Positions 2,811 to 38,604 are shown, counted from the first letter of the stretch. The stretch is 52,967 nt of DNA from a virus (IMGVR_UViG_3300043683_000021:1-52967), one strand, 5' to 3'. Notes: generated by a model not told the origin, from the letters alone. Made by a program: numbers and translations.

Positions 2811-2877
2811 AAACGAAAAAGCGGCCACGCCTCCCGAAGGAGATGTGGCCGCGATGAAGCGTGCCGCTGCTAATTGT
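2811..2877 (-). promoter_or_regulatory. Conserved late leader element, copy 1 (before scaffold/capsid)
   Basis: Minus strand: ACAATTAGCAGCGGCACGCTTCATC-GCGGCCACATCTCC-TTCG-GGAGGCGTGGCCGC-TTTTTCGTTT; hairpin followed by a U-tract. Confidence 0.85.
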
Positions 2878-2920
2878 GTCGGGGCGCTACTAATGCGCGC
2901 CCGTCCTACCGACGACTAAG

Positions 2921-3208
2921 CTATGGCTGCGTTACAGCTGGCGCAATATTAGGGCTCCATCTAAACACGACTCGCTCCTCGGCTTCCTCGTCCGTCCGGC
3001 AGTATGCACCTAGTTGGACAATCTCGCCGGGACGATGATCTACCACCGCTGTGCCGTCGTCGACTCTCACCATGTACGGAATGCGCAACGTCCGACACCA
3101 GTCGCTTAGCGTCTCGCACTCCCCGTCGCGAGGGCCGCCAAAGAGCACCGCGATCCTTCCGCCGTCGTTCGGGATGCCGCCGTTACTCTCGTAGCACAAC
3201 GCCATCAC
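2921..3208 (-). CDS. Hypothetical protein
   Basis: 95 aa with LFGGPRDG motif; 4-bp overlap with the upstream gene. Confidence 0.6.
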   Translation of the reverse strand: MMALCYESNGGIPNDGGRIAVLFGGPRDGECETLSDWCRTLRIPYMVRVDDGTAVVDHRPGEIVQLGAYCRTDEEAEERVVFRWSPNIAPAVTQP

Positions 3209-3393
3209 GACGACTCCGGCGGCAGCGTGGACAGCGTGCGATACAGGAGACCGAGAAGCTCGCCGCCGTCGGGGTCAGCCTTGATCGCAGAATCGACCTC
3301 CGCTTGCAACGCCGGAGAAGTGGCAATCTCGACTGCGAGCTTGTCGCCGATTCGCTGCATGATCTCCGCCGTCTCGCGCGCAGGATTCGCCAT
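3205..3393 (-). CDS. Hypothetical protein
   Basis: 62 aa helical ORF from ATG 3393, filling the gap after the glycosyltransferase. Confidence 0.55.
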   Translation of the reverse strand: MANPARETAEIMQRIGDKLAVEIATSPALQAEVDSAIKADPDGGELLGLLYRTLSTLPPESS

Positions 3394-3397
3394 GCGC

Positions 3398-4771
3398 TCA
3401 GTATACACCCTCCAACCCCCCGCGCAATTCCGAAACCGCCGCAGGCCAGTCGTTCGTGTGCCGTCGCCGCACCGTCGTGTGGTTTGGATACCAGGCGCTG
3501 CCATCGCGCCGAATGCCGGCGGCTTCCAATGCGGCGGGGCGATTGTGCCGGAACTCGTAATAGCTCGGCGGGAAGATGTACGTCGGCACGCCGAGCGACC
3601 CCGAGAGATGCGCGACCGACGTGTCCACGCTTACGACGAAATCGAGCTGCGCGATCTCCTCCGCCGATTGCAGCCAATCGCCCTGACCGATCCGCCGGGT
3701 GATCTCCGGATACTCGTCCTCCCGCTGGCCGCGCTGGATCGAGTGCCAGGTGATGCCGGGGAGATCGAGCAAGGGCAGAAATGCGCGGTGCGCCGCTGAG
3801 CGGTCACGGTCGAGACTCGCGACGTTGGAGCCCGCCCAGCAGATCCCGGCGTGGCCTTTCACGGGCCGGCGCGGGATCTTGAAGTCTGTCGGCGGCGGCA
3901 CTTTCGCCAGCGCGTCCGTCCCCATGAGCCACGGGAGCGACATCACGGGCGAGTGCGCATCGAAGCGGGGCAGGGGCTCGTTCGTGCCGTACGTCTCGAA
4001 GCCCAGGCGGAGCATGAGGGGGACGAGCGGCGGCTGCACCACGAGCACGAGCTTGTCCACCATCGTCGCCGCGATCGTCGCATAGCGCGACATCATGAGC
4101 ACGTCGCCCAACCCTTGCTCGCACTCGAGCAAGAGCGTCCCAGGAAACGGTTTGCCATTCCAGCGATGCGTCCCCAAGATCGCCTCGAGCTCGGGCGTCT
4201 GGTGGCGGAGGCCGATCCGCCAGCGATTCTCGAAGAGCGACCACCGCGAGTAATCGCCCCACCATGCGCCGCACGTCGCCTGGTCGTTTCGGTCGCTCGC
4301 ATTCTTCCCTGGCAGACTGAGCCCCTTCGCGAAGAGCGCCTCGGCCTGCGCAATGTCGCCGTGCATCATGAGCATGAAGCCGCGCCCGATCATGGCCGCG
4401 ACGTGCGTCGGGTCGAGCGTCAGCGCGATGCGCAGCTCCTTCGCGGCGAGCCGGAAGTCGCCGAGCCCGCGCGCCGCGCAGCCCAGGTGGTAATGCGCCT
4501 GCGCATTGTCGCGGTAGTATTTGCTCGAGACCGACCGGCGGATGTATTGAATCGCTTCGGTGAACCGCCACGACGCGAGCGCCTCGACGCCCCGGCAATA
4601 GATCATCGTCGGATCGTCGGGCGCCAAGCGGTACGCGTGCCGCCAATGCTGGACGGCGAGCTGCAGATTCCCCGCCTCAACCGCCTCGTTGGCGAGATCG
4701 AAGAGTCGGAACGCCTCTTTGTGCTTCGCCTGCGCGTACGTGATGCGCGACTCGACGCGGACGGCGGTCAT
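3398..4771 (-). CDS. TPR-repeat plus GT-B (GT9/heptosyltransferase-like) glycosyltransferase
   Basis: N-terminal TPRs (AHYHLGCAARGLG, ALTLDPTHVAA) followed by EQGLGDVLMMSRY, PVMSLP, GICWAGS and LDFVVSVDTSVAHLSGSLGVPT, the hallmark motifs of TPR-GT9 proteins. Confidence 0.9.
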   Translation of the reverse strand: MTAVRVESRITYAQAKHKEAFRLFDLANEAVEAGNLQLAVQHWRHAYRLAPDDPTMIYCRGVEALASWRFTEAIQYIRRSVSSKYYRDNAQAHYHLGCAARGLGDFRLAAKELRIALTLDPTHVAAMIGRGFMLMMHGDIAQAEALFAKGLSLPGKNASDRNDQATCGAWWGDYSRWSLFENRWRIGLRHQTPELEAILGTHRWNGKPFPGTLLLECEQGLGDVLMMSRYATIAATMVDKLVLVVQPPLVPLMLRLGFETYGTNEPLPRFDAHSPVMSLPWLMGTDALAKVPPPTDFKIPRRPVKGHAGICWAGSNVASLDRDRSAAHRAFLPLLDLPGITWHSIQRGQREDEYPEITRRIGQGDWLQSAEEIAQLDFVVSVDTSVAHLSGSLGVPTYIFPPSYYEFRHNRPAALEAAGIRRDGSAWYPNHTTVRRRHTNDWPAAVSELRGGLEGVY

Positions 4772-5283
4772 GCAGGCGCTTGCATCACTGCGAAATTCCG
4801 CCAGCGTGGCACGAGCGATTCCACCAACAGGCGCGTCGCATCATGCAACAGCATCTTGTCGCGGTTCATCGCGTACCAGTCGGCCACTTCCCAAACGCCT
4901 TTCTGCGCGCGCCCCGCACCCATCCAGTCCGCGACCATCTCGCGCACGAAATTCTCCGGCATTTCGAGTGCGACCAGATCGCCGGAGTCGCGCTTCAGGA
5001 GCCAGTGCTGCCAATGGTGCGGATTCAGGTGGACGTGATGCAGCCACGCGCGATCGAACGGTGCATTGGCGCCCGGATTGTAGCTCGCGCTCGCGCCACG
5101 CGGATCGCCGGCGACCTTCGGGCCGTAGAACATGCGCACGTAGGCGAACCATTCACTCGGCAGGAACTTCGACCAGTCGTGAATCAGTAGGCGCCAGAGC
5201 GGCGCGCCGGTGCGCAGTCCTGCGACGAGCACAAACCATTTGTGCCGCAGGACATAGCGGAGATAGCGGAGGTGCGCGTTCAT
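4768..5283 (-). CDS. HD-superfamily protein (DUF5662-like)
   Basis: RHKWFV...IHDWSKF...WLHHVHLNPHHWQHW...EMVADW pattern; start at ATG 5283. Confidence 0.8.
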   Translation of the reverse strand: MNAHLRYLRYVLRHKWFVLVAGLRTGAPLWRLLIHDWSKFLPSEWFAYVRMFYGPKVAGDPRGASASYNPGANAPFDRAWLHHVHLNPHHWQHWLLKRDSGDLVALEMPENFVREMVADWMGAGRAQKGVWEVADWYAMNRDKMLLHDATRLLVESLVPRWRNFAVMQAPA

Positions 5284-5639
5284 CTCCGATCGTTGTGATG
5301 CTTCACGGCCGCGTCGACCGCTTGTTCGAGTTGTACGAGGAAGTGCCCATCGCCGAGTACAATGCGGTGCGTCGGCTTGTTTCCGGCGCCGCATTCAATC
5401 ACGACGTTGTGAGTCGCAGCGAGCGCGGCAAGCGATTTCATCATCGCGTGCAGGCGGCCGTAATCGCTCGTCTCCGTAGCACCGGCGAGCTGCCAGCCCT
5501 CATCGAACGTCTCGCTCGGATCGCCCGTCACCTTCTGTCCGTGCTTGTCGACGATGACCGGCTGCTGCGCGGGATCGAGCCCTGCGAACGGGCCGGAGAC
5601 GGGCAGCTCGTTCGGATCGTACTTGTTGGAGTCTTTCAT
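5280..5639 (-). CDS. Hypothetical protein
   Basis: 119 aa from ATG 5639 with a strong AAGGAG SD. Confidence 0.7.
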   Translation of the reverse strand: MKDSNKYDPNELPVSGPFAGLDPAQQPVIVDKHGQKVTGDPSETFDEGWQLAGATETSDYGRLHAMMKSLAALAATHNVVIECGAGNKPTHRIVLGDGHFLVQLEQAVDAAVKHHNDRR

Positions 5640-5680
5640 GTTTCTCCTTCGGAAGAATTGGAACAGAAAAACGGCGGTCA

Positions 5681-5893
5681 TTATCCGTTGTCTTGGTAAT
5701 TCGGATTCATCGCCATGCTCTTCTTCGCGAAGAAGCACGCTTCCTCGAGCTTCGTGCGGGCGAGGGCAGCGGTCCGCGGATCGAAGTGACTCGGCTCGAT
5801 CTTCTGGAGGAGATCGCTGAACAGAATCGCGATGGCGTTCGCTTGCGCTTGTCCCTGCTCATTCAGCTTGTGAAATGCGAATGCGTCGTGCAT
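5681..5893 (-). CDS. Acb2/Tad1-like helical-hairpin protein (putative anti-defence nucleotide sponge)
   Basis: 70 aa: FAFHKLNEQGQAQA...PRTAALARTKLEEACFFAKKSMA resembles the FxYH...R(E/T)xxLAxTxLEEAxxW/F core of Acb2/Tad1 hairpins; GGAGG SD. Confidence 0.7.
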   Translation of the reverse strand: MHDAFAFHKLNEQGQAQANAIAILFSDLLQKIEPSHFDPRTAALARTKLEEACFFAKKSMAMNPNYQDNG

Positions 5894-5911
5894 GGAACCT
5901 CCGTGAGTGAG

Positions 5912-7075
5912 TTAGTGCGTGTGCGCGAGTCGTTGCCACGAGCGCGCCGTCGCGGCGCCGTGTGCGAGCAACGCGCGTTCGGCGGGCGAGAGTGGTTGTT
6001 CCGCGAAGTCCAGCAAGGCGCCGAGCTGCTCGCGCACCCGCTCTTCCGCGCGCGGTGTCGCGTACTTGGGGAGCGACACGGTCTTGGGCTCCGCGATCCG
6101 TCGGTTCGTGGGCAGGGGATCGTTGACGCGCGCGAACGGGCGGAGCGTCGGCGCGAGTGAGCACCAGCAGAAGGGATGCGGCCACTCGGGGACCATTGTC
6201 TTCGGAAACCAGCCCGGCCCGCCGCCGTAGAAATCGCTCGTCGCCAGCGCGTCACAGATGTCCGCTTTCGGATGCGCAGGCGAGAGTGTCCACACGTAGC
6301 CCTCGATCAGCGGATCCGCGAGCCCGTTCGTCTTCAGCGCGTTGCCGTACGCTGTGTGCAACTCGCTCGAGGCGATCCGGCGCGCGTTGTAGCGGATCTG
6401 CTTGGCCGCGCCGCGGAGATCCTCGGGGAGCTGCTTCCACGCCGTTCGCATCGCCTTCTGTGCCTCGGCCTCCGCCGTCTTGCCGAAGCGACTCGCGGGG
6501 AACGCCTGATAGAACGTCTCTGCGCCCTGCACGTACGGGCGGAGCTGCACCGCGAGATCGGCGGGGGAGATGCCTTGCAGGAGCGCCGTCCGGATGAGCG
6601 AGTCGAGTTCGGTCGCGGCGTTGTCGATGTAGTCGCGAAGCGTCGTGCGCCAGTCGGCGGCGTTCCCGTGGTAGACGGCGTAGAGATTGACGCGCGGAAT
6701 CCGAATCGCGCCGAACGCCGCGCCCTCGCTCCGGGCCGCGACGGCCGACGCCTCCCGGTAGATCGTGCTCACCTCGTCGAACGTGAGCGCGCGATTGACT
6801 TGGATCGCGCCGGCCATCGTCGCATCGAGCACAGTCGCTGCGCGGACGATGACCGCGTGACTCTCGCGGAGGGCACGCCGGCGCTCGGCGGGCGTGTCGG
6901 CGTGGAGTGCCAGCAGCTCCGCCAGCACGGTGCGCGCGAAAATGTCCAGGTCGTCCGCGAGCTGTGCGGCCAGCGTGTCGGAGAGCGTGCCCGCCAAGGC
7001 GCGTGCACGCTGCGCCGCGAAGAGGTAGGCCGATGCCGCGCCAGAGGCGCCGCCCTCGAGATTAGGCGACGTCAC
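5912..7075 (-). CDS. Minor head morphogenesis protein (SPP1 gp7/Mu gpF-like)
   Basis: YNARRIASSELHTAY, W...HPKADICD and PEWPHPFCWC motifs; downstream of portal. Confidence 0.85.
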   Translation of the reverse strand: MTSPNLEGGASGAASAYLFAAQRARALAGTLSDTLAAQLADDLDIFARTVLAELLALHADTPAERRRALRESHAVIVRAATVLDATMAGAIQVNRALTFDEVSTIYREASAVAARSEGAAFGAIRIPRVNLYAVYHGNAADWRTTLRDYIDNAATELDSLIRTALLQGISPADLAVQLRPYVQGAETFYQAFPASRFGKTAEAEAQKAMRTAWKQLPEDLRGAAKQIRYNARRIASSELHTAYGNALKTNGLADPLIEGYVWTLSPAHPKADICDALATSDFYGGGPGWFPKTMVPEWPHPFCWCSLAPTLRPFARVNDPLPTNRRIAEPKTVSLPKYATPRAEERVREQLGALLDFAEQPLSPAERALLAHGAATARSWQRLAHTH

Positions 7076-7183
7076 GCGGGATCAGGACGGAATAGTGCCA
7101 GAGCAGCCACGCGGTGTACGGCGTGTGCTGTCCGGCCTTGATCTTGAGCGTGAGGGGCCACCAGATGCTCATCGGCGCGCGCC

Positions 7184-7888
7184 CTAGTTGAACGACGGAC
7201 AATCGGACGACCACAGAATGTCGGTCCCCGAGCTGAAGGTCCCCGTCGCGGCGCCGCTCGTCGAATCCGCGACCGTCGTCCCCGCCCCTTCGTTCATCTT
7301 CCAGTAGCCGGCGAGCCCCGGTTCGGCGCCGGTGAGGCGGCGATTGTAGTTGTCGAGGATCGTCGCATTCGCGCGCGCGATATTCCAGACGCGGAGATCG
7401 GAGAGGCGTCCCGCGAAGGAGTCGCCCGCGCCGTCGCCGCCGATCTTCCGCAACGTCGAGCCGATGGTGCGCGCAAACGTGCTGTTCGCGGTGTTGTCGT
7501 GCTGGACGCCGTTGACGAGCCAGCGCTGGAAGCCGCCCGCGACCGAACGCACGTAGGCGATATGTGTCCACAGATTGAGCGTCGGCGCGAAGGTCGACTG
7601 ATTCGCGCCGAACATGCCGAGCACGCCGTTGGAGGCGTTCTGCATCATCGTGATGTCGAGGCCGCTCGACCCGGTGCAGAAGATGCCGCCCTGCGCGCCA
7701 CGACTCGCGAGCACCTTGATCCAGCACTCGATACAGAACTCGTTCGGCATTGCGCCGGCCGAGAGCACGCTTCCATTCGGAAGCGCGATCGACGGCGTCG
7801 TGTGCGTCGTGCCGTAGAGATCGACGGAGCCGGCCTTCTCCACCGGCGCGCTCGTCCCGCCGCCCATGAGCAGATTCATGTAGCTCAT
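7184..7888 (-). CDS. LamG/concanavalin-A-like jelly-roll protein
   Basis: FCIECWIK, WTHIAYV, FAGRLSDLRVWNIAR and GLAGYWKMNEGAG motifs; start at ATG 7888. Confidence 0.88.
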   Translation of the reverse strand: MSYMNLLMGGGTSAPVEKAGSVDLYGTTHTTPSIALPNGSVLSAGAMPNEFCIECWIKVLASRGAQGGIFCTGSSGLDITMMQNASNGVLGMFGANQSTFAPTLNLWTHIAYVRSVAGGFQRWLVNGVQHDNTANSTFARTIGSTLRKIGGDGAGDSFAGRLSDLRVWNIARANATILDNYNRRLTGAEPGLAGYWKMNEGAGTTVADSTSGAATGTFSSGTDILWSSDCPSFN

Positions 7889-8070
7889 GCGGTCATCTCC
7901 TGCGGATGGTCGAGCATCGCGCATCCTTCCGGCGCGCAGTCCTGCAGTTCGTCGTCGGGTTCGTCGGCGCGCGGCCGCTGGACCGTGCCCATGCCGAGCG
8001 ATGGAAAGCGCGCCGCGGGACAGTTCACCGCGTGCCAGTTGTCATCGCGTAAGCAATGCGCGCACATCAC
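7885..8070 (-). CDS. Small Cys/His-rich protein
   Basis: CAHC..WHAVNC and C..EGC...H; coupled to neighbours on both sides by 4-bp overlaps. Confidence 0.5.
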   Translation of the reverse strand: MMCAHCLRDDNWHAVNCPAARFPSLGMGTVQRPRADEPDDELQDCAPEGCAMLDHPQEMTA

Positions 8071-8159
8071 GCGTCTTTCCTCCACGCGACGAGACACACG
8101 AAGCCGACGAAGAGGAGGAAGGCGACGAAGAGGAGCAGCCCGGCGGTATCGTCATTCAT
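8067..8159 (-). CDS. 30-aa single-TM peptide (not in the ORF track)
   Basis: MNDDTAGLLLFVAFLLFVGFVCLVAWRKDA; ATGA overlap with the NTase stop and GTGA overlap with the next gene. Confidence 0.6.
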   Translation of the reverse strand: MNDDTAGLLLFVAFLLFVGFVCLVAWRKDA

Positions 8160-8575
8160 CGGCGCACCTTCACCCGGCGCGTATCGAGACGCAGCCGTGG
8201 CTTCCCCGCGAACGCCTTTGCGTACGACGCGGGGTAGACTTGGACGTCGCAGTTGAGCTGCAGGCGCGAGGAGGCGACCTTCGACTGCTTCACGCAGTCA
8301 TCCGACCACCGCCAGCGCACATCCGTCCACTTCCCGGTGCGTCCCTCATCGACCCACGCCTTGGGATCGCCGTAGCGCGTTGCGAAGTCCGCATCGCTCA
8401 GCGTGATTCGGAAATCCCAATCGCGCGGCTTCTCATTCGCGTCCATGAGCGCCGAGCCGACGAGATACACGGGCACGCCGTACAATCCGCGCAACCCGTT
8501 CGCCTCCATACGCAGCCGCTGCATCATGTAGCGATGGCTCTGGAAGCCGCCTTTTAGCTTGAGCTTCATCGTCAC
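8156..8575 (-). CDS. Minimal Pol-beta-superfamily nucleotidyltransferase
   Basis: VYLVGSAL....PRDWDFRI matches the hG[S]x(7-13)DhD signature; a third Asp is in CDVQV. Confidence 0.75.
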   Translation of the reverse strand: MTMKLKLKGGFQSHRYMMQRLRMEANGLRGLYGVPVYLVGSALMDANEKPRDWDFRITLSDADFATRYGDPKAWVDEGRTGKWTDVRWRWSDDCVKQSKVASSRLQLNCDVQVYPASYAKAFAGKPRLRLDTRRVKVRR

Positions 8576-10431
8576 ACCCCCGCGCGCGGGCCGAGCCGCG
8601 AGCTACCGTCGGGACGCGAGCCGATATCGGTCGACGCGTCAGTCCCGGTGAGATCGCCGCCGCCGTCCTGATTCGGACCGCCGGCGCCGGACGCGGTGAG
8701 CTTGGGGAACGTCTCGGCTTCCCGCGCCTTCGCTTCCGCCGCGCGTTCGGCCGCGAGCTGCATCGCCTTGAGCCCGGCCTTGGCTGCGACGGGCGTCAAG
8801 AGCGCTTCGGCTTCCTCGAGCGAGATCTTCCCGATGGCCGCGAGCTTCAACCCCGCGATATAGACCTGAAAGTCGGGCGGGAGCGTGATGGAATTCGTCT
8901 CCATCAAGTCCAAGAGCTCGCGCGCCTTCACGTCGGCGATCAGTTGATCGTCGTTCGCCGCCACGCCTTGCCAGCCGACAATCTGTTGCGCCGCGGCGAC
9001 CTTGCCCTCGATCCCCACGGGGACCGCGCGATCGGTGCCCAGGATGCGCTTCTGGAGCCGCTCGATGCCGACGTCGGGGTCACTCGGGAGGAAGTCCGAC
9101 GAGCGCGAGACGGAGAACGCCCACCAGTGGCGAGCCTCGGTCGGATGGAGGATCTGCGCAATGCGCCAGGCGCACGCGGCCTCGGCGTCGTCGATCGCCT
9201 GTTTGGTGAGATTGAGGAACGCGCCCGCGCCTTTCGCGACGTCTTGCCGGGCCTCGGTAGCCGTGCGCTGCTTCGCGCTCTCGCCGTACGACTGGTGGGC
9301 GGTGTTGAAGAACTCCTCGACCTTTTGCTTCAGCACCTCGCTCGACACCGTCGCTGACTCGACCCCCGGCGCGATGTACTCGTTCGGGTGTTTCTGCTCG
9401 TTCGTCTGATGAAGCGTATTCGAGCCGGCGGAGATGCTCGCGCAGTTGGTCTGATACTCATCCCGCGTGCCGCCCAGATTGAGCTTCGGGAAGTTGGCGG
9501 TCCGCAAGATCGCATCGCGCGCGGATTCCTGATTGAAGATCGCGAGCTGCTTCCGCGCCCAGAGGTAGCCCACGTCACGCTTCATCGGGAGCTTGACGCG
9601 GAAGATCGGCAACGCCGGGTCGCCACGTGGCGATTTGAAGGCGTAGCTGCCGTAGTCGAGATCCTGGACGCCCCGATTGCTCGCATCCAGTGCGATGACG
9701 GTGCCGGGCAAGGCAGGCTGGGACGCCCGCTTCTCGAGCTGGTAGCGCTGGTAGCCGTCGAGCCGGTAGTGCATGAACTGCCGGACGACGAGATCGGGAT
9801 CGTCGGTGAGCGACATGCGCGCGTCGACGTCCTCTTCCACCAGCACTTCCACGATCTGGCCGTCTTTGACGCGCCAGTTCGGGACCGCCAAGGGCGGGAT
9901 CGTCTTCACCATTGGCGCGCCGGTCGGGCTCGTGAAGCAGAGCAGCCAATCCTGGTGCACGACGCAGAGGTCGATCAGGAGCTGCTTGAACACCATGAGC
10001 CAGCCGTCGCCCTCGGGGTTCGCGTGGCGCCAGAGCTGGCCGAAGGTCGAGCTGGGGTCGTCGGCATCGCCCAGCCCGAAGCCGTCCTCGTCGACGGTGA
10101 CGCGCGTCGCCTCGTCCTCGACCGCGAAGAGCATCCCGGCTAACCCGTCGACGACCGTCGCGAAGTGGTTCGTGAAGTCGACCGTGCGCATCCGCTCTTC
10201 GAAGGCGCGGTCATGCTCGCCGGTCGCGCGCTGGACGAGATAGCGGGGGAGCTTGAGCGGGTCCATGATGTCGCCCGAATAGACATCGGTCGCGACGATC
10301 CATTTGGGCTTGCCCTTCGTGAACTCGGGATGCTCGCGCTCGAGCCACGTCCGCTGCGCGTCGGGGCCAGAGCCGCTCGCCGAGGCCGCCATCCCGCTAG
10401 TCGTCTGTGACGGGGCGATCGAAGTGGCCAC
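8572..10431 (-). CDS. Portal protein (DUF4055-like)
   Basis: About 619 aa from GTG 10431 (GGGAG SD) directly after terL; HPEF...W, YL.....E...FEER...F.N pattern; RTATEARQD motif. Confidence 0.85.
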   Translation of the reverse strand: MATSIAPSQTTSGMAASASGSGPDAQRTWLEREHPEFTKGKPKWIVATDVYSGDIMDPLKLPRYLVQRATGEHDRAFEERMRTVDFTNHFATVVDGLAGMLFAVEDEATRVTVDEDGFGLGDADDPSSTFGQLWRHANPEGDGWLMVFKQLLIDLCVVHQDWLLCFTSPTGAPMVKTIPPLAVPNWRVKDGQIVEVLVEEDVDARMSLTDDPDLVVRQFMHYRLDGYQRYQLEKRASQPALPGTVIALDASNRGVQDLDYGSYAFKSPRGDPALPIFRVKLPMKRDVGYLWARKQLAIFNQESARDAILRTANFPKLNLGGTRDEYQTNCASISAGSNTLHQTNEQKHPNEYIAPGVESATVSSEVLKQKVEEFFNTAHQSYGESAKQRTATEARQDVAKGAGAFLNLTKQAIDDAEAACAWRIAQILHPTEARHWWAFSVSRSSDFLPSDPDVGIERLQKRILGTDRAVPVGIEGKVAAAQQIVGWQGVAANDDQLIADVKARELLDLMETNSITLPPDFQVYIAGLKLAAIGKISLEEAEALLTPVAAKAGLKAMQLAAERAAEAKAREAETFPKLTASGAGGPNQDGGGDLTGTDASTDIGSRPDGSSRLGPRAGV

Positions 10432-10469
10432 GCGGCTCTCCCGAAGAACGATCCTGATAGCGGTGCATG

Positions 10470-10543
10470 AAAACAGAAACGCGGCCACAGTCCCCTCGAG
10501 AGAGGGAAGTGCGGCCGCGGTGAAGCGAACCATTCCGAATTGT
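10470..10543 (-). promoter_or_regulatory. Conserved late leader element, copy 2 (before portal)
   Basis: Minus strand: ACAATTCGGAATGGTTCGCTTCACC-GCGGCCGCACTTCCCTC-TCTC-GAGGGGACTGTGGCCGC-GTTTCTGTTTT. Confidence 0.85.
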
Positions 10544-10579
10544 TAGCGCCTTGAACCTATAAGCTCACGGCGCGGAAAT

Positions 10580-11956
10580 CTATAGCGGTAACAGCATCGC
10601 CGAGCCCTGCGCGTTCCGGGCGCCCGACTGCCGGCATTCGATCGCTAGCGCGAGCGCGTTCACGCAGTCGTCGTGCATCTCGTCCGGCGCCGAGTACTTC
10701 ACGCGTCGCGTCGCCGGGGAGTACTGATATTCGAACGCATCCAGCTCGCCACGGAGCACGGCCCCGAACAACGACACTTCGCGATGCTGCAGCGCGACCG
10801 TCAAGCGCTCCATCAGATGTTGCTTGCTCGTCGCAGTATATACGATGCCGCGAAGGTTGGGGCAACTTGTGGTCAACGTGCCGATCGCCTGTTGGCGCGC
10901 CGCTGCCTCGGCCTGCTGCTGCGCGTAGTACGCCTGCGTGCGTGCCGCGGCGGTGCTGCCGAGTGCGGGCTCTTCGCGCGGCCGCTCGAGCGGCTCGACG
11001 TCGCCCGACTGCAGCTCCTCCAAGATCGGATCGCCGACGCCGGTCGAGTCCATGAGGCCGTACGCGCTGCCGACGAGCTGCCGCGCCACCGCGATCGTCT
11101 CGCGCCACGGCTTCTGGAAGCGCACGAACCGGCACATGCGCCCGCCCGCGTCGAGCGCGATCAGCACCGTCCAATCGGTGTACTTGGCGACGTCGACGCC
11201 CCAATAGACCGGCGTCCCGCGCGTCGCGAACCCGTGCGGGAGCGGGACGAGCTCGGACTCGGGGATGTTGAAGCACTGCGCGATCGCTTGGAGCCCGAAC
11301 GGGTTCCCGGCGTCGGCGGCGGGGATCCCGCGATACTCCTGATTGAAGACTTCCTCGGGGAGATCGAGCCGCGCGTCCTCGATCTCTTTCGGATCGATGA
11401 ACGGGTTGTCGATCGTCCCGAAGCGCCATGACTTCCAGCGCGGGCGCTCGCCCTGGCCCCGCACGTAGAGGTTGTGGAAGTAGCCGCCGCCTTTGGGCGT
11501 GCCCAAGAACCACGCGTCGCCTTTCAAGTCGGAGAGCGTCGCGCGAATCGCTTCCTCCCACGACGCGCGGAGGGTACGCGCTTTCCCGGCCTCGTCGATG
11601 ATCACGCGCCCGTATTTCCGCGAGCGGCCCGCGTCGGGGTCGATCATCGTCCAGCACTCGATCACGCCACCGCCCAGGAGCTCGAGCCGATGTTCGCGCT
11701 CGTCGCGGTGCGTGATCACTTCACGGAGAATTTCTTTGAGGTTCCGCCACGCTTCGGAGAGGTACTTATTCGACGGCGCGAACCAGCCAACCGGCCGGCC
11801 GTCGAGCGCGCTCTCCGTCGCTAAGTCTTTCCCGAGTGCCGTCTTCCCGAAGCGGCGACCGCATTCCAGCACGTTGAAGCGCGCCGACTCCTGGACGACT
11901 TGCACCTGTCCGGGATGACGGGCGGGCAGGCGCACCGCATGTTCGACGACCGTCAC
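10580..11956 (-). CDS. terL: Terminase large subunit
   Basis: Walker A CGRRFGKT, Walker B VIIDEAG, motif III GTPKG, nuclease motifs GVDVAK..D and HDDCVNALALA. Confidence 0.95.
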   Translation of the reverse strand: MTVVEHAVRLPARHPGQVQVVQESARFNVLECGRRFGKTALGKDLATESALDGRPVGWFAPSNKYLSEAWRNLKEILREVITHRDEREHRLELLGGGVIECWTMIDPDAGRSRKYGRVIIDEAGKARTLRASWEEAIRATLSDLKGDAWFLGTPKGGGYFHNLYVRGQGERPRWKSWRFGTIDNPFIDPKEIEDARLDLPEEVFNQEYRGIPAADAGNPFGLQAIAQCFNIPESELVPLPHGFATRGTPVYWGVDVAKYTDWTVLIALDAGGRMCRFVRFQKPWRETIAVARQLVGSAYGLMDSTGVGDPILEELQSGDVEPLERPREEPALGSTAAARTQAYYAQQQAEAAARQQAIGTLTTSCPNLRGIVYTATSKQHLMERLTVALQHREVSLFGAVLRGELDAFEYQYSPATRRVKYSAPDEMHDDCVNALALAIECRQSGARNAQGSAMLLPL

Positions 11957-12528
11957 GGTTCATCGTCGTCATCGTGCACGGGCGGGACGAATGGCTCGCG
12001 TACGACGCGGACGATGTGCTCGATCGGCTTTCCGTCCTTGCCTGAGATTTCCCCGCGTTCGGTGACGAGTCCGACGTGCGGCATGAGCATGCGGAGCGCG
12101 GCGTTCTTGTCCCACAGCTTGAAGTCGACCGAAAGCTCCTTACCGCTCTTCTTCCGCTTGATCGCAGCCACCGCGCGCGCAGCCGATGACGGTGCGCCGG
12201 CGGTCAAGCGCATCTGCCCCTGGAAGTTGGCCGCGTAGTCCCGAGTATCCGAGAACGCGAGCACGGCCAGCTCCGCCAACACGCGATCGGCGGTAATGCC
12301 GGTGCGCGCGCTCCGCTCGGCCTTGAGCTGTGCAACGTAGGCCGCGATGTTCGGCTGCGTGAGCAGATGCGACGCTTGGAACTTCGCGGTCTTCGGCGAG
12401 TAGCCGGCGCGGATCGCGGCGCGCGCACCGCAGAGGTCCACGATGAACTCTTCGCAGAACCGTTCCTGCTGCTGCGTCAGGGGCTTCTCCGCTGCTTCGG
12501 TTGTCGCGTCGCCCGTCTCGTCAGCCAT
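11953..12528 (-). CDS. terS: Terminase small subunit
   Basis: LTQQQERFCEEFIVDLCGARAAIRAGYSPKTA...ITADRVLAELA...KLWDKNAALRML is the Terminase_2-type pattern. Confidence 0.95.
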   Translation of the reverse strand: MADETGDATTEAAEKPLTQQQERFCEEFIVDLCGARAAIRAGYSPKTAKFQASHLLTQPNIAAYVAQLKAERSARTGITADRVLAELAVLAFSDTRDYAANFQGQMRLTAGAPSSAARAVAAIKRKKSGKELSVDFKLWDKNAALRMLMPHVGLVTERGEISGKDGKPIEHIVRVVREPFVPPVHDDDDEP

Positions 12529-12536
12529 CGCCAGTT

Positions 12537-12603: not shown

Positions 12604-12606
12604 CTA

Positions 12607-12705: not shown

Positions 12706-12724
12706 TCCTACTGACGATCCAAGC

Positions 12725-13096: not shown

Positions 13097-13133
13097 TCAC
13101 CAGTGGTCAACGTGAAGCGGTACACACGAAGAG

Positions 13134-13162: not shown

Positions 13163-13176
13163 TTAAGGGCAGAGTG

Positions 13177-28597: not shown

Positions 28598-29922
28598 GAC
28601 AGCATCCTCCGCATCGCGCGGAAGCCTTTGCGGCTCGAATGGGCGAACACGAAGACATGCTTGAGCGCCTCGTCCGTGCACGGTCCGGCGCACGCGAGGC
28701 GGTCGTTGCGCTCGATCAGAAACGCGGTCGCGAGATCTGGGACCGCCTTCCCGCAGACCACGCACTGCGGATTCTTCTGAAACGCGAGCTGAAACCGCTC
28801 GGTGTCCGCTCGCTTCATCATCGCTTTCGTGAATTCGTGCATCATTGCCCGCCTCATGTCACGTCGATAATTTTTGAGGGCGGCGCCGGGGGAATCCGGC
28901 AACGCCACGGTAGCGACGGTCGGTCCCCTCGAAGGGCCGGCCGTTTTCCGTTCTATGCTGTTCGCTACGCCGACAGGTTGCCGCTCCGGAATCCTCGGAG
29001 ATTCCGCCGCAGCTCCTCGGCGCTCGTCATCGGGCGTGCGAGATGGGCGGGCCGCGTCGTCGGCGCCATGCGCTGCCGGAGCTCGTCCCGCTTGGCCCGC
29101 TGATCGGCGCGTCGCATGCGCACCGACAGGATGAGCGCGACGATCGCGATCACAAGACAACTGATCGGTAGGGCATCGTGGAGAGAGATCATCGCACACA
29201 CTCCTGTTCGAGTTCGCGCGCGGTCAGGGGATGGCTCGTCAAGCGTCGCTCGGCGATCGCGCGGAGACCGAGAGCGACTTCGTGCTTGACGGATTCGATG
29301 GTTTGCCGCTGGTGCGCGCCCTGGAGCGAGCCCGCGAGATGGATCAGCTGCGACGCGGACGCGAAATGCACATCGGCGGGGCGCGTGTCGGGCACGAGTG
29401 CGGGCTTCGGCGTGATGCGGCCAGCGAGGGCGCGTCTCATGCGGTCACCCTGAGCTTTACGGCCTGCTGAATCGCCAACGCGGCAATCCGAGATAGCGAG
29501 TAGAGCCGATCAACATCGTCGTGCGATTCCGCGAGCGTGAGTTTCCACGAACGCTTGGTTATCCCGTTGTACGAGACGATGTTGACCGACACTAGCTCGT
29601 GTGTGAGCACTTCATCGGCTGACAGGCGCGCGAGGTCGATCTCCACATCAGCGAATGCGTCGGCGTGGGCAGGCTTCACCATCACCCGTGCGCGCGCGTC
29701 AGTACGATTTTGCGGCTCGCTGCTGGCTTCCATCGCCGCGATGCCATCCCGGAGTCCCGTGCACTTTTCGCACGGACACACATCGGGAGTCGGTTCGCCG
29801 GACCGAAGAGCGGAGATCTCCATCGCGTGATACATGGCCTTCGCGTTCGCGAGGATGTTCGCGCGATCTTCTGCTTCGGCGGTCTCGCCCATCGTCTCGA
29901 TGTAGCCGTGATCCTTCTTCAC
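28594..29922 (-). CDS. Early hypothetical genes (29437..29922, 29189..29440, TM protein 28965..29201, CxxC protein 28594..~28908)
   Basis: Coupled ORFs downstream of the cII-position gene. Confidence 0.55.
28916..28952 (+). terminator. Intrinsic terminator antisense to the early operon
   Basis: ACGGTCGGTCC/GGGCCGGCCGT 11-bp stem (G-U pairs on +) followed by TTTCCGTT. Confidence 0.55.
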
Positions 29923-30679: not shown

Positions 30680-30717
30680 TCCGTGGAGGCCAGAAGTAAT
30701 TATTACCCACGGACGGT

Positions 30718-30745
30718 ATTCTACACGTTAAAAGTCAGAAGTCAA
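30718..30745 (-). promoter_or_regulatory. Early lytic promoter (PR-like)
   Basis: TTGACT-N16-TAGAAT on the - strand in the AT-rich cI/cro gap. Confidence 0.75.
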
Positions 30746-30758
30746 TAGCCAACGTCAT

Positions 30759-31798: not shown

Positions 31799-31981
31799 GT
31801 GACGGATCCCGGCCACCGCGTTCCGAATCCGCTCGACGTGACGCCCGCGGGCGTGTGCGCGATCTGCGGCGAGGAGCAGCTCCGCACCGTTGAACTACAG
31901 ACGGCGAGCGGTGACGGCATCCGCCTCGCGGTCACGCATTGGCTCGAGTGCAGCTGTGGGCGGAGACCGGCGACTACATGA
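31799..31981 (+). CDS. Small Zn-ribbon protein
   Basis: CAICG...ECSCGRR; AAGGAG SD. Confidence 0.65.
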   Translation: MTDPGHRVPNPLDVTPAGVCAICGEEQLRTVELQTASGDGIRLAVTHWLECSCGRRPATT

Positions 31982-31991
31982 CACGGCTGTC

Positions 31992-33209
31992 ATGTTGAAC
32001 GACGATCGCGAGTCGAAACTGCCAACGCACCTCCCCGGCTTGGACGGGGTGCGCGGCGTCGCCATCCTCGCGGTCCTCGCGCTCCACGCGCTGGACGGCG
32101 CGCCGCACGCGGGGCTCGTCGATGGGTTGGTGGGGCGCGTCGGGAGTGCGGGCTGGATGGGCGTGGATCTGTTCTTCGTCCTCTCGGGGTTCCTCATCAC
32201 GGGAATTCTGCTCGAGCAACGGGGGAAGGCCGGCTATTTCCGGACGTTCTACGCGCGCCGCGTGCTCCGCATCGTTCCGGTCTACGTCGCCTTCCTCGGC
32301 TTCAGCCTCTACGTGGCGCCGGTGGTCGGGGCGTCGACCGAGGCCGCGGCGGTCGCGCTCCGCCACTGGCAGGCGTGGTACTGGACGTATCTCGCGAACG
32401 TGATGCTGTTGCTCCACCCAGCGGCGCACACGGCCTACGCACCAACGCATCTGTGGTCACTCGCGATCGAGGAACAGTTCTATCTCTGCTGGCCGCTCGC
32501 GGTCTGGCTCTTGTCGCCTCGCGCGATCGCCAAGGTAGCGCTCGCGTGCATCGTGGGGGCGGAGCTCGCGCGCATCGCCGTCGTCATGTTCGGCGCGCGG
32601 GGGGAGGTGAACTATCTGCTCTTGCCGACGCGAATGGACACGCTGGCCGTGGGCGCCTTCCTCGCGTGCGCGGTGCGCGATCCGCGAATCCTCGAGACTG
32701 TCCGAAAATGTCAGGTCCCCGTCGCACTCGGCGCCGTGATGCTGCTCGGGGTCACGGTGTACCTGACGCACGGCATCGACCCGTACCAGCCGCTCCCGCA
32801 GTTGTACGCGCTGCCCGCCGTCGCCGCGCTGTCCGGGGTGCTGGTGCTGGCCGCGACTCAGCCGGGAACGGTGTTCGCGTGGGCGCCGCTCCGGTTCCTG
32901 GGGCGCGTGAGCTACGGCATGTATCTCTGGCATGTGCTGGTACTCTCAACCCTGCTCGCGCATACCCGATGGCTCGCGCCGCGCCTCGTGGGCGGCTCCT
33001 ATCTCGTCTCGGATCTCGCGTCCGTCGCGGTGCTGCTCACGGCGACGGTGGCGGTCGCGCTCGTGAGCTGGCATCTGATCGAACAGCCGTTCCTCCGGCT
33101 CAAGCGGTACGTCCCGTACGGCGGGGCTCAGCACGCGCGCGTCGTGTCCAGTATCGGGGTCAATACGGGCGCTAGCATCGCGTCCCACGCGGAGTCGAAC
33201 GCGCGTTGA
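31992..33209 (+). CDS. Acyltransferase-3 (OafA/YrhL family) membrane O-acyltransferase, lysogenic-conversion moron
   Basis: LDGVRGVAIL, GVDLFFVLSGFLIT, FYARRVLRI, HLWSLAIEEQFYL, SYGMYLWH and HLIEQP motifs. Confidence 0.95.
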   Translation: MLNDDRESKLPTHLPGLDGVRGVAILAVLALHALDGAPHAGLVDGLVGRVGSAGWMGVDLFFVLSGFLITGILLEQRGKAGYFRTFYARRVLRIVPVYVAFLGFSLYVAPVVGASTEAAAVALRHWQAWYWTYLANVMLLLHPAAHTAYAPTHLWSLAIEEQFYLCWPLAVWLLSPRAIAKVALACIVGAELARIAVVMFGARGEVNYLLLPTRMDTLAVGAFLACAVRDPRILETVRKCQVPVALGAVMLLGVTVYLTHGIDPYQPLPQLYALPAVAALSGVLVLAATQPGTVFAWAPLRFLGRVSYGMYLWHVLVLSTLLAHTRWLAPRLVGGSYLVSDLASVAVLLTATVAVALVSWHLIEQPFLRLKRYVPYGGAQHARVVSSIGVNTGASIASHAESNAR

Positions 33210-34180: not shown

Positions 34181-34207
34181 GGGAGGCTCCGGTGGCAAAG
34201 GGTTCGC

Positions 34208-34297
34208 TATTACCAACTCTGGTAATATATACCCAGCTTTGGGAATGTCAATAGCGGTATTACCATATTTGACAATTGCCACCGGACGGTATAGGTT
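34208..34297. promoter_or_regulatory. Second divergent promoter/operator region
   Basis: Palindrome TATTACCA-ACTC-TGGTAATA (34208-34227); leftward TTGACA-N16-TATATT; rightward TTGACA-N17-TAGGTT. Confidence 0.75.
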
Positions 34298-34305
34298 CGT
34301 ATCCT

Positions 34306-34545
34306 ATGCCGATGCTTCGACTCCGGGTAAATGAACTCCTCGCCAAGCGGGGATTGACTGCCTACGCCCTCAGCAAGGCGTCTGACGGGCGTATCTCAAT
34401 GACAACGGCCTACCGCCTCCGGGACACCGACGGCGAGCTAGACACCTTCAATTCCGAAATGCTCGAGGCGCTTTGCGACGTGCTCGGCGTCGAGATTAAG
34501 GAGCTGATCGAGCGCGTACCCGAGAAGCGAGGGAAGGGGAGATAG
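34306..34545 (+). CDS. Cro/C1-type HTH regulator (HTH_26-like)
   Basis: LRVNELLAKRGLTAYALSKAS..ISMTTAYRL...LEALCDVLGVEIKELIE. Confidence 0.88.
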   Translation: MPMLRLRVNELLAKRGLTAYALSKASDGRISMTTAYRLRDTDGELDTFNSEMLEALCDVLGVEIKELIERVPEKRGKGR

Positions 34546-34571: not shown

Positions 34572-34606
34572 AAACGGCGCCCCTGCATCGGGCGCCGTTT
34601 TTCTTT
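34572..34606 (+). terminator. Intrinsic terminator
   Basis: AAACGGCGCCC-N7-GGGCGCCGTTT followed by TTCTTT. Confidence 0.85.
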
Positions 34607-34626
34607 GCAATCGCGAAAGATTTCTC

Positions 34627-34655
34627 TTGCGTTCTGTCCTACAGTGTGGTATAGT
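34627..34655 (+). promoter_or_regulatory. Promoter of the TA operon
   Basis: TTGCGT-N17-TATAGT with an extended -10 TG; ATG follows 5 nt later. Confidence 0.8.
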
Positions 34656-34660
34656 TCTCC

Positions 34661-34987
34661 ATGCAATTACTCTTTCGTGAAGTGAAACCCTTTACCCTCA
34701 GCGCGGAAGGCGTGCTCTCAGATGATGAGCTGTTCGCGGTTGAGGACGAACTACTGAAGAATCCGGAAGCGGGCGATCTGATTCCGGGCACGGGCGGCGT
34801 TCGCAAGATTCGCGCAGCGATCGGTGGACGTGGAAAGCGTGGCGGGGCGCGGGTGCTGTACTACTACGTCTCGCGTCGCGCGGTGATCTATCTCATTTAC
34901 GTGTACGCGAAGAATCAGGCGTCAGATCTGACCGCCGACGGAAAGAAAGCGATGCGGAAATGGACGGCGATCTTCGATCAGGAGTAG
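34661..34987 (+). CDS. higB: RelE/HigB-family toxin
   Basis: LLKNPEAGDLIPGTGGVRKIR...GRGKRGGARVLYYY...IYLIYVYAKNQ is the HigB2/RelE signature. Confidence 0.92.
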   Translation: MQLLFREVKPFTLSAEGVLSDDELFAVEDELLKNPEAGDLIPGTGGVRKIRAAIGGRGKRGGARVLYYYVSRRAVIYLIYVYAKNQASDLTADGKKAMRKWTAIFDQE

Positions 34988-36932: not shown

Positions 36933-37330
36933 GGCGTCCCCTGCTGGATTTGGAGCAGATGACACGGGAACGCGAACGGCTCCATTGGATGCGGATCGGA
37001 CGGCGGCGTGGGCCCCTGCAGAAGCAGATGGAGCAGCTCGTGCCGCACGACCCAGCCGGTATCCGGCAGCCCCTGCGTGATGAACATCGTGTCGCCGGGA
37101 ACCCAGCGAGCGAACACGCGATGCCCGCCGATCGAGACGAGCGACTCGGGGATCACCACGAGCTGCGCGAGCGCATGGCCGGGAATCGGCAGCCGCCCGC
37201 TGCAGCTTTGCACGCGCTCCCATGCGGATTCGTAGCGCACGCTGTCGAGCGGGGCGCGGCGATCGGCGGCCGCGGGCGCGCTGGCGCCACAGAGGAGGAG
37301 CGCCGCGACGAGCAGCGAAGCGCCCTTCAC
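36929..37330 (-). CDS. Exported HExxH zinc-metallopeptidase-like protein
   Basis: Signal peptide MKGASLLVAALLLCGASAPAAA; VVRHELLHLL and a downstream DPH. Confidence 0.7.
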   Translation of the reverse strand: MKGASLLVAALLLCGASAPAAADRRAPLDSVRYESAWERVQSCSGRLPIPGHALAQLVVIPESLVSIGGHRVFARWVPGDTMFITQGLPDTGWVVRHELLHLLLQGPTPPSDPHPMEPFAFPCHLLQIQQGTP

Positions 37331-37875
37331 GCGTGCACCGTCAATGCGTATGGTATCGTGCGCCGCGCATACTTCGTCATCTCGGCTTTGACGAGCGCGT
37401 AGAACTCCGGCCACTGAGACGGCGGGATCGTCTGGCACCCCTCGCTCGAGGTCGAGCCCTCGCCGCCGTGGTGGATGTTGATGCCGAGGTAGCCCGTGTC
37501 TTCTTTCCCACCGTCACGCGTAACAGTCACCGGCGCGGCTTGCACGAGCGCGGGATACTGGCGCGGGCCCACGGGGTGACTCAGCCCGTGAATGCCGAGC
37601 TTGTAGAGCCAGACGCCGGGCTTGAGCGTGGCGATGCCGGGGAGCTGGCGCGACGGATCGGTGTTCGCGTTGAAGGTCGCGTAGCGCGTCGGCGTGACGA
37701 GGAGCATCGCATCGTCATACACGCCGAGATCGTTGACGCCGGGCGTGCCCATCGTGTCCGCGTAGTACCCGCGGCGACCGATCAGTGCGAAATTCTCGAC
37801 GCCCACCGCGGTGAGCAGCTCGAGCGCGGCGATGCGCCCCATCTCGGGGCGCGCGTGCGGGAGGAGATCGCTCAT
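37327..37875 (-). CDS. Putative endolysin with an L,D-transpeptidase (YkuD)-like catalytic motif
   Basis: GINIHHGG...SSEGCQ (H...SxGC); NDLGVYDD and NTDP motifs; directly after the holin. Confidence 0.7.
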   Translation of the reverse strand: MSDLLPHARPEMGRIAALELLTAVGVENFALIGRRGYYADTMGTPGVNDLGVYDDAMLLVTPTRYATFNANTDPSRQLPGIATLKPGVWLYKLGIHGLSHPVGPRQYPALVQAAPVTVTRDGGKEDTGYLGINIHHGGEGSTSSEGCQTIPPSQWPEFYALVKAEMTKYARRTIPYALTVHA

Positions 37876-38198
37876 TGCGGCGGCTCCGGCGTCGCGACGA
37901 TGATCGGCGGGCGCGGGAGGAGGAGCTCCGGCTTCTGTGTGCTCTTCGTGCGGACGATGAGCGGGAGAATGCCGCCGGTGACGAGAATGGACACGATGCG
38001 CCAGTCCGGCACGAGCCCGGCGGCGGTGCACGCGATGAGGTAGCGGTGCAGCGAGTACCACATCAGGAACGCGATGATGCGCACGCTCGAGGTGGTGTGG
38101 CGATGCGGATCGGTGACGGCGCCGAGCAGCCAGCTCACGCAGAACTTGAACAGGCTACGCGGGCGGCGCGGCGGGCGCTCGAGGAGGAGGTCAGCCAC
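37872..38198 (-). CDS. Putative holin
   Basis: 108 aa with 2-3 hydrophobic segments and an SSVR motif before the TM; upstream of the lysin. Confidence 0.6.
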   Translation of the reverse strand: MADLLLERPPRRPRSLFKFCVSWLLGAVTDPHRHTTSSVRIIAFLMWYSLHRYLIACTAAGLVPDWRIVSILVTGGILPLIVRTKSTQKPELLLPRPPIIVATPEPPQ

Positions 38199-38523
38199 TG
38201 ACCACCCCCGATTCGCCGCTGAGTCGCGGAAGCTGTCCGGTCACGAACGTCTCGAGCGCGGCGCCTTTCTTCTCGATGTTGCCGATGCGGATGGAGGTCG
38301 CCTTTGCGACGTTGTTCAAGTCCGTCTCGAGCTTCTCGATGCGTTGCTCGAGCTTCCCGCGCTCTTTCGCTTCGTTGGTGAGCGCGAGATCACGCGACTC
38401 TTCGAGCTGTTCGCGCTTGCCCTCCGCCTTCAGTTCGCGCTTCCGTCGGCGGATGTACGCGGGCACGAACGCGACGAGCGCGCCACCGAGAAAGAGCAGG
38501 ACTTGGAAGAGATGCTCGTTCAT
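38191..38523 (-). CDS. N-terminal TM plus coiled-coil protein (holin/antiholin-like)
   Basis: LFQVLLFLGGALVAFVPAYI followed by RRRKR and a coiled coil; start at ATG 38523. Confidence 0.65.
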   Translation of the reverse strand: MNEHLFQVLLFLGGALVAFVPAYIRRRKRELKAEGKREQLEESRDLALTNEAKERGKLEQRIEKLETDLNNVAKATSIRIGNIEKKGAALETFVTGQLPRLSGESGVVSG

Positions 38524-38535
38524 GCGGGACTCCGG

Positions 38536-38604
38536 AAAACGAAAAGCGGCCACATCTCCGCGAAGGGAGGTGTGGCCGCGATAAGGCGTGCCCGAGTGAA
38601 TTAA
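38536..38604 (-). promoter_or_regulatory. Conserved late leader element, copy 4 (before the lysis cassette)
   Basis: Minus strand: TTAATTCACTCGGGCACGCCTTATC-GCGGCCACACCTCCC-TTCG-CGGAGATGTGGCCGC-TTTTCGTTTT. Confidence 0.85.

Follow-up and report, generated by a model that had tools for sequence, protein, structure and literature searches.

Four copies of a motif-tagged, terminator-like element precede late gene modules in an uncultured soil phage

The four elements and their setting

The window analyzed here is the whole of IMGVR_UViG_3300043683_000021:1-52967, a linear IMG/VR virus record of 52,967 bp from an uncultured soil phage (65.7% G+C; 67% complete according to CheckV). Almost all of its genes lie on the - strand, and four copies of a hairpin element, designated E1 to E4, are found on that strand ahead of terS, the portal gene, the scaffold and coat genes, and a holin-like gene, respectively (Table 1). 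An earlier note, made from the sequence alone, had described the same four copies as a candidate late-gene control system, and all of them are present where it had placed them. Each follows one plan from 5' to 3': an AT-rich box, 6-8 variable bases, the 13-nt motif GGYNCGCYTYAYC, a hairpin and a U-tract. E1 is positioned 120 nt past the gene for a small Cys/His protein and 16 nt ahead of the terS ATG. E2 falls between the terL stop codon and portal, E3 is directly ahead of a scaffold-like open reading frame (ORF) and the P22-type coat gene, and E4, which comes after the tail-region ORFs, precedes the GGAG and ATG of the holin-like gene by 12 nt.

The recurrence is not random. The 15-mer CGCYTYAYCGCGGCC, common to the four copies, has four exact matches in the window against 0.02 expected, a count reached in none of 100 shuffles. 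With two mismatches allowed there are eight matches against 4.03 expected, and only the exact copies stand out. The base of the stem is indeed invariant (GCGGCC/GGCCGC in all four copies), and two loops contain TTCG as described (UUCG in E3, CUUCGC in E4). A mismatch had been assigned to stem position 9-10 in three copies; three do carry one, at position 9 in E3 and position 10 in E4, but at position 11 in E2. The upper stem is largely common to E2, E3 and E4, and that of E1 is unrelated in sequence yet paired. The proposal that the upper stem varies while keeping its pairing therefore holds by eye for E1, whereas covariation is indemonstrable with four copies: one of 14 pairs is double-changed in a MAFFT alignment, as in 253 of 500 shuffles. 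Outside a 19-nt block and the box, the flanks of the four copies are unalike.

All four copies have the anatomy of intrinsic terminators, with a stem of 12-17 bp followed by a U-tract on the transcribed strand. The element stretches (81-86 nt) fold at -29.7 to -35.7 kcal/mol, with z scores of -2.8 to -3.8. No other strong terminator-like site on the gene strand of the window is unidirectional; a single further strong site (34572-34600) works in both directions by its anatomy. A covariance model built from E1-E4 (R1) and run with filters off scores these four at 65-88 bits and does not find a fifth copy in the window. Next in rank come the opposite strands of these hairpins (7-26.5 bits) and a + strand match of 13 bits; the best other gene-strand match reaches 11.5 bits at 677-704. 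As the note had anticipated, no characterized family is matched: Rfam gives no hit at the gathering score across the window, and four 3-kb loci centered on the copies stay without a hit even when E values of up to 5 are admitted. Contigs of soil DNA from two runs, one of them probably the source, were compared with 2700-13200, and among the differences listed none is located at E1-E3.

In E1, E3 and E4 the next start codon comes 0-27 nt past the U-tract, and likewise in several relatives. This leaves no room for a promoter, and the downstream genes must therefore be transcribed through the hairpin. No -10-like hexamer was found between the hairpin and the next start codon in these three copies. 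A scan for sigma-70-like promoters returned no sites in 1-20000 and none in 38000-52967, stretches that include the late region; good sites on the gene strand are limited to 34251 and 30745. The predicted promoter at 30745 heads a co-directional early operon that reaches 12725 and runs into E1.

Most relatives have a stop codon 0-20 nt ahead of the box. An 11-codon mini-ORF of the window (12604-12639, - strand; ATG at 12639, TAG at 12606-12604) stops exactly at the first base of the E1 box.

Table 1. Positions of elements and genes in the window, and of corresponding elements in related phages
Feature	Position	Strand	Remarks
E1	12535-12603	-	Box ACAACTC 12603-12597; motif GGCGCGCTTCACC; 12-bp hairpin 12576-12545; UUUUU from 12544
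E2	10466-10543	-	Box ACAATTC 10543-10537; motif GGTTCGCTTCACC; 17-bp hairpin 10519-10480; interrupted U-tract GUUUCUGUUUU
E3	2808-2877	-	Box ACAATTA 2877-2871; motif GGCACGCTTCATC 2865-2853; hairpin 2852-2821; UUCG loop; UUUUU
E4	38530-38604	-	Variant box TTAATTC 38604-38598; motif GGCACGCCTTATC; hairpin 38579-38546; UUUU
Cys/His protein gene (P0026, 123 aa)	12725-13096	-	Last gene before E1; candidate trans-acting factor
terS	11953-12528	-	Terminase_2, E 3e-34; ATG 12528; first gene past E1
terL	10580-11956	-	Protein family scan; stop at 10580
Portal	8572-10533	-	Family scan; first gene past E2; start uncertain (606-aa database call = 10392; in-frame ATG 10470)
Head morphogenesis protein	5912-7075	-	Family scan
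Scaffold-like ORF	1949-2812	-	First gene past E3; homologues precede coat gene in L176, L139 and others
P22-type coat	716-1894		Family scan
Primase/helicase	17240-19054		Family scan
RecT	27089-28765		Family scan
Integrase	23878-25353		Family scan
Last tail-region ORF before E4	38672-39940		
Holin-like ORF	38191-38523	-	110 aa; hydrophobic N-terminal segment, then charged stretch; first gene past E4
Sigma-70-like promoter (predicted activity)	30718-30745	-	TTGACT-16-TAGAAT, 10/12
Element before terS or gene preceding terL, G001	L143:3862		
Element before terS or gene preceding terL, G002/G003	L149:4682		
Element before terS or gene preceding terL, G004	L154:1636		
Element before terS or gene preceding terL, L139 phage	L139:8079		
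Element directly before portal, L163	L163:3938		Portal 63% identical
Element directly before portal, G005	L128:9840		
Element before scaffold/coat, L176	L176:2837		By homology (scaffold-like 45%, coat 69%)
Element before scaffold/coat, L139	L139:14885		By homology (32%, 54%)
Element before scaffold/coat, G001/G003	L143:10087		By gene order only
Element before scaffold/coat, G005	L128:12937		By gene order only
Element past large tail proteins, G001	L215:10889		Before small ORFs with hydrophobic N-termini
Element past large tail proteins, G005	L218:5347		Before small ORFs with hydrophobic N-termini

The same junctions in related phages

The loci used for comparison were reached through portal homologues and comprise 38 from IMG/VR, 43 from metagenomes (many of them the same contigs) and one contig of a metagenome-assembled genome (MAG) labeled Gemmatimonadales. 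They were scanned for strong hairpins with U-tracts and with R1, and genes were placed by tblastn with the window proteins. The closest portal homologues, P0002 (77%) and P0003 (74%), are outside the compared loci, among which L163 is the closest. Among GenBank phages, 8000-13200 has no blastn matches beyond two of 72 nt in terL, and tblastn against cultured phages found no match to the portal and at most 37% identity for terL. The gapped element pattern has no exact match in IMG/VR; the bare 15-mer occurs there in 120 stretches, in none of which it is accompanied by a hairpin with a U-tract.

Distant relatives, with portals 33-63% identical to that of the window, carry hairpin elements at the same four junctions, all of them on the gene strand (Table 1). 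The G005 copy past the tail genes precedes a homologue of window 37327-38061 with 44% identity. The U-tracts are poor in two relatives' copies, namely G001 copy 3 and L139 copy 1. One further R1 match (L149:1169-1244, E 0.02) was rejected as an element, since it has no U-tract and lies inside a 441-aa ORF. For G001, G003 and G004, element identity is 0.9-0.97, which is equaled by the flanking coding DNA, and footprinting is thus uninformative.

The MAG that holds L163 is the putative host (L220-L239; 20 contigs, 152 kb). It contains nine loose terminator candidates, of which approximately one is convincing. Strong intrinsic terminators are rare in this putative host, and the four of the phage stand out against its background. 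R1 finds no match in the MAG at E up to 1, a result that is uninformative at that genome size.

Box and motif

Conservation of the 5' sequence in relatives, which the earlier note took as critical, is partial. Its AAYT part is kept as a (G/C)ACAAY box, located 13-27 nt 5' of the hairpin in several lineages, whereas CGCTTCA has been lost from view in L163 and most other relatives. ACAAY is present 13-30 nt 5' of eight of the 15 strong gene-strand hairpins in relatives, at none of six opposite-strand hairpins, and at none of the nine terminator candidates in the 152 kb of the putative host MAG. The background frequency is about 2.6% per 18-nt window (76 sites on the gene strand of the stretch analyzed). 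The eight box-bearing hairpins are not independent, as G001, G003 and G004 are close kin; they represent at least four lineages (G005, the G001 group, L163 and L169).

The hairpin-adjacent motif differs by lineage and is common to the copies within one genome. In G001 and G003 it reads GGCCTGTC(A), followed by the stem base (G)CCGGC; G005 has ACAAYNCANTGACCG as motif and stem base together; and in L139, CGACSACAC leads into the stem base GGCCGCTT. The exception is the lysis-proximal copy of G001 (L215:10863-10937), which reads CGCCTTGCC ahead of GCGGCC and almost reproduces E4 of the window. The G001 portal is 35% identical to that of the window (best tblastn segment), and the other two G001 copies use GGCCTGTC. 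Two motif classes may coexist in this genome, or the lysis module may have been swapped together with its element. CGCTTCA is not the family-wide signal; the box and the architecture are.

The Cys/His protein encoded before E1

A profile search among 1.84 billion proteins returned 34 cluster representatives of the P0026 family, in the alignment of which C46, P47, C66 and C68 are invariant and G49 and H50 nearly so. A homologue with 35% identity is encoded at the same place in L163, and a remote one is present in G001 (hhalign E 1.6e-4). The earlier note had asked whether the elements co-occur with homologues of this gene, and they do: in a local profile search, for which co-occurrence was tested only on the loci fetched through portal, the family is restricted to L163, G005, G001, G002/G003, G004 and the L139 phage, and every one of these has elements. 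In five of six lineages the homologue is encoded upstream of the packaging genes, as in the window. The P0026-bearing lineages do not form one clade on a quick portal tree with an unresolved backbone and an unfinished search; there are four label changes, a count as low being reached in 2 of 500 shuffles, and the starred branches force at least three.

L163 is without an E1-type element; its Cys/His gene overlaps terS. A perfect 29-nt direct repeat (L163:1470-1550), in two copies 4 nt apart, is located just upstream of this gene.

Searches with P0026 and 32 relatives against Pfam identify no Q family and no Ogr/Delta, only six weak, unrelated single-member matches. P0026 has no match in PHROGs or among PDB sequences. 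The AlphaFold model obtained with 33 sequences is usable (pLDDT 79), and that obtained with two sequences is poor (pLDDT 46). Foldseek finds no fold match for the 33-sequence model in the PDB or BFVD (best E 0.29 and 0.25, respectively), and in the ESM Atlas all matches are below 0.9, with TM below 0.5. Among the 50 window proteins scanned against Pfam no Q, N, NusG or sigma protein could be recognized, in agreement with the view that the phage has no recognizable Q gene.

Proposed mechanism

Judging from sequence and position, we tentatively read the elements as terminators that depend on a factor, are antiterminated locally and gate the late modules one by one, an interpretation that we regard as plausible rather than probable. 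Each element would be a strong intrinsic terminator with a recognition region, consisting of box and motif, fused at its 5' shoulder. One long co-directional path would thus be cut into blocks in the order early operon, E1, terS-terL, E2, portal and head accessory genes, E3, scaffold-coat-tail, E4 and lysis. RNA polymerase would stop at each copy unless a phage factor acts there, such that antitermination would be local and not processive. Nascent GGYNCGC would pair with the six bases that open the terminator 5' arm (GCGGCC) and exclude the terminator; a protein holding this weak helix, or the motif and the stem base, would keep the terminator from forming. The prime candidate for such a factor is P0026, the orphan Cys/His protein whose gene comes last before E1.

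The helix formed by GGYNCGC:GCGGCC would comprise 6 bp, one bulged base and a YUYAYC hexaloop. RNAfold predicts it in all four window copies when the 3' arm is left out, and it would account for an invariant stem base beneath an upper stem that is free to vary. G001 copy 1, G001 copy 3 and L176 have comparable helices of 5 bp.

A number of observations weigh against this interpretation. An uninterrupted helix of at least 5 bp is present in only three of 12 independent motif types (Fisher p 0.019), and with one bulge allowed single copies have p values of 0.004-0.05 and several are at 1.0. The upstream region and 5' arm fold no better than shuffles, 0.18-0.61 of which are at least as stable, and such a helix is missing from three of the four G005 copies, from L139 and from L169. 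The hairpin-adjacent motif is not kept between lineages, and L163 retains only the box and the hairpin. The poor U-tracts of G001 copy 3 and L139 copy 1 raise the possibility that termination may not be a conserved function. A terminator ahead of scaffold and coat, the most abundant products, is awkward for pure attenuation. As for the factor, P0026 has no family, solved-structure or fold match that indicates nucleic-acid binding; the L125/126/176 lineage has an E3-type element, and no P0026 homologue was detected in the 4.4 kb upstream of its portal gene. Furthermore, the co-occurrence of P0026 and elements spans few lineages, possibly of shared ancestry.

Because support for the pairing is weak, the general claim that a factor reads a tag at the terminator shoulder is ranked above the specific claim that it stabilizes an antiterminator hairpin. 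The fully specified version is a doubtful elaboration: in a clade of soil siphophages that probably infect Gemmatimonadota, a zinc-type orphan protein of ~120 aa would read the ACAAY box and the lineage-specific motif on nascent RNA and switch the four terminators off singly, with the result that the packaging, head, tail and lysis modules are each gated on their own and not through a single processive Q- or N-type event.

Alternative explanations

The most serious competitor treats the elements as ordinary terminators or attenuators, partial and constitutive, which set the ratios between module transcripts and provide the upstream mRNAs with a stable 3' hairpin. The shared block would then derive from duplication of one terminator, and antitermination, if there is any, would act processively and without regard to the motif. 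The terminator anatomy of all four copies agrees with this, as does the common descent visible in the upper stem of E2, E3 and E4; the absence of demonstrable covariation and the statistically weak antiterminator pairing also fit. Duplication does not account so easily for the 19-nt block and the box, which were kept while the flanks and the E1 upper stem diverged. Other lineages repeat the pattern with their own motifs, and the box recurs in lineages whose portals are 33-63% identical. Given that no late promoter was found, a series of four strong terminators would moreover be expected to leave the lysis genes almost untranscribed. We consider plain attenuation unlikely, if worth serious attention; even under it, the conserved box would still mark a signal in this phage clade.

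It is also conceivable, and in our judgment quite unlikely, that each copy is a composite of a terminator and a late promoter, with the box and motif as promoter or activator sites, a transcription start inside the 5' arm, and the Cys/His protein as the activator. RNAs begun at such a promoter would not contain the whole hairpin, while those arriving from upstream would be stopped. Four copies at module starts, one of them before the abundant scaffold and coat, are what this predicts, and a small Cys-containing protein is encoded beside the first copy. The box is the most AT-rich spot and resembles a -10 hexamer at four of six positions (GACAAT versus TATAAT). It has no T at position 1, however, and often none at position 6; there is no common -35, and the spacing between box and motif varies. 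The phage's own early promoters are canonical (TTGACA/TATAGT), whereas the late region has no promoter-like sites, and in E1, E3 and E4 the 0-27 nt between hairpin and start codon are devoid of a -10-like hexamer. Finally, no Pfam family, Ogr/Delta included, matches P0026. Further readings were tried and rejected. GGCACG...GC as a sigma-54 site has a GG-to-GC spacing of 11 in the window copies instead of the canonical 10, and the box does not fit the elemental pause consensus, IHF, CtrA or GANTC by eye.

Small RNAs derived from 3' ends, such as CpxQ, suggest another model, in which termination and cleavage at the AU-rich box would release a family of RNAs with the motif as common seed. The order of stop codon, AU-rich box, single-stranded block, terminator hairpin and U-tail is typical of such RNAs, and in most copies the stop codon is 0-20 nt ahead of the box. 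Still, the window contains no complementary target site: neither an antisense nor a target copy of the motif exists within one mismatch, and the closest + strand match has two. Several boxes read ACAAC and do not have the U expected at an RNase E-type site, and the recurrence at the same module junctions in relatives would be left unexplained. This model appears very unlikely.

That the copies act as DNA, either as operators for a dimeric DNA-binding protein or as recombination hot spots that shuffle modules, in the way proposed for the promoter-stem-loop repeats of T4, is extremely unlikely: the motif and stem base do form an inverted repeat (GGYNCGC-N6-GCGGCC, an imperfect dyad), and the copies mark module borders where the packaging module differs between close relatives (the L126 terL, 537 aa, has no tblastn match to the window terL), but in every genome examined their orientation is strictly that of the genes, and most have U-tracts, both of which are properties of the transcript level.

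The note had also suggested translational operators and put-like antiterminators. The former are unlikely, because the hairpins cover neither the start codons nor the GGAG of E4, and a put-like RNA does not fit the single hairpin.

Relation to known systems

A few model phages, with Q, N, Ogr/C, RinA or phage sigma factors, account for what is understood of late-gene control. To our knowledge, no late regulator can be named for most environmental phages. In the pairs of ribonucleic antiterminators (RAT) and terminators read by antiterminators of the BglG/SacY/LicT type, a conserved 5' segment of ~25-30 nt overlaps the 5' arm of the terminator, and a weak alternative hairpin needs a protein. 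This segment is common to several copies of one regulon, whose terminators diverge beyond their base, much as is observed here. Unlike these pairs, the present elements belong to a phage late operon, show no sequence likeness to RAT, and have a predicted alternative helix in only some lineages; the CAT and PRD antiterminator families are not represented among the 50 window proteins scanned against Pfam.

The nut sites used by lambda N consist of a linear boxA and a small boxB hairpin. They resemble the elements in having a linear box common to phages, a spacer of ~8 nt, and a phage-specific hairpin of 5-6 bp with a loop of 5-6 nt, and also in occurring more than once per genome and acting on read-through. 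However, nut is not fused to the terminator that is overcome, N works processively from one site per operon, and the ACAAY box does not resemble boxA. No N-like protein was found; the single N_peptide match, which scores 19.3 bits (cut-off 27.9), falls in the head morphogenesis protein (5912-7075; residues 59-136) and is probably a composition effect.

Ogr of P2 and C of Mu are small zinc-type activators, Ogr/C control operating through four late promoters. The parallel consists in a small zinc-type protein and four cis sites at the starts of late modules, but the P2 and Mu sites are promoters, in which a -10 follows the activator dyad, whereas here there is neither a -10 nor room for one. Attenuator terminators in phage late operons are likewise GC-rich hairpins with U-tracts between late genes; they differ from the present elements, which have a conserved 5' tag, an invariant stem base, and a position and box kept across distant relatives.

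With regard to gene position, lambdoid Q with PR'-tR' and BrrG of BaGTA (10.1101/2024.11.20.624540) are comparable: the gene for a small Cys-containing protein is the last early gene and directly precedes the terminator ahead of late genes that depend on read-through. Other regulators placed before late or packaging genes are reported for BaGTA (10.1101/2024.11.20.624540) and for RinA (PMC3152322). Here, by contrast, no promoter adjoins the terminator, there are four sites instead of one, and P0026 matches no Q family or fold. A Q-type promoter with a pause upstream of the terminator is not found, as the promoter scan gives no sites and the flanks have no common -35/-10 by eye.

By analogy, the closest known system is RAT/LicT in logic, the nut site in layout and Q in gene position. 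Membership in any of these three fails because the protein does not match, and Q and Ogr/C fail on the promoter as well. Literature searches on phage late-gene antiterminators, ribonucleic antiterminators, stem-loops of terS and late operons, and phages of Gemmatimonadetes yielded no account of the element.

A cis element with four conserved positions, a box common to lineages, lineage-specific motifs and a co-occurring orphan protein is a testable candidate for another solution to late control. If antitermination is local, as we propose, packaging, head assembly and lysis would be timed separately from one transcript, and orthogonal terminator/antiterminator pairs could be obtained as genetic parts.

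Other features of the record

The immunity-region promoters are canonical, with TTGACA-16-TATATT in 34200-34310 and TTGACT-16-TAGAAT in 30700-30750, and an operator-like word, ACGGACGGTAT / ACCGGACGGTAT, is repeated at both sites. An HTH_26 gene (34276-34545) is found just upstream of an ORF for a RelE-like toxin (34620-34987, + strand; Pfam RelE, E 1.6e-8). The ATG of the latter is only 5 nt past a TATAGT hexamer, which suggests that its mRNA may be leaderless. The bidirectional terminator at 34572-34600 separates the HTH and RelE-like genes and consists of an A-tract, an 11-bp stem and a T-tract, without box or motif.

Gene order across the ends of the record, with coat at 716-1894 and head-tail genes at 51753-52805, agrees with that in relatives, in which homologues of 52296-52805 come after the coat gene. 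On this basis the record may represent a complete genome in permuted form, with positions 52967 and 1 adjoining. An Acyl_transf_3 gene (31890-33209, + strand) sits on the opposite strand amid early genes; it is likely a moron and is perhaps involved in acylation of surface polysaccharide. The region between portal and E3 (3398-7924, - strand) includes unusual cargo near the head morphogenesis gene, encoding a LamG-like protein (7184-7924), a DUF5662 protein (4768-5394) and a TPR protein (3398-4771).

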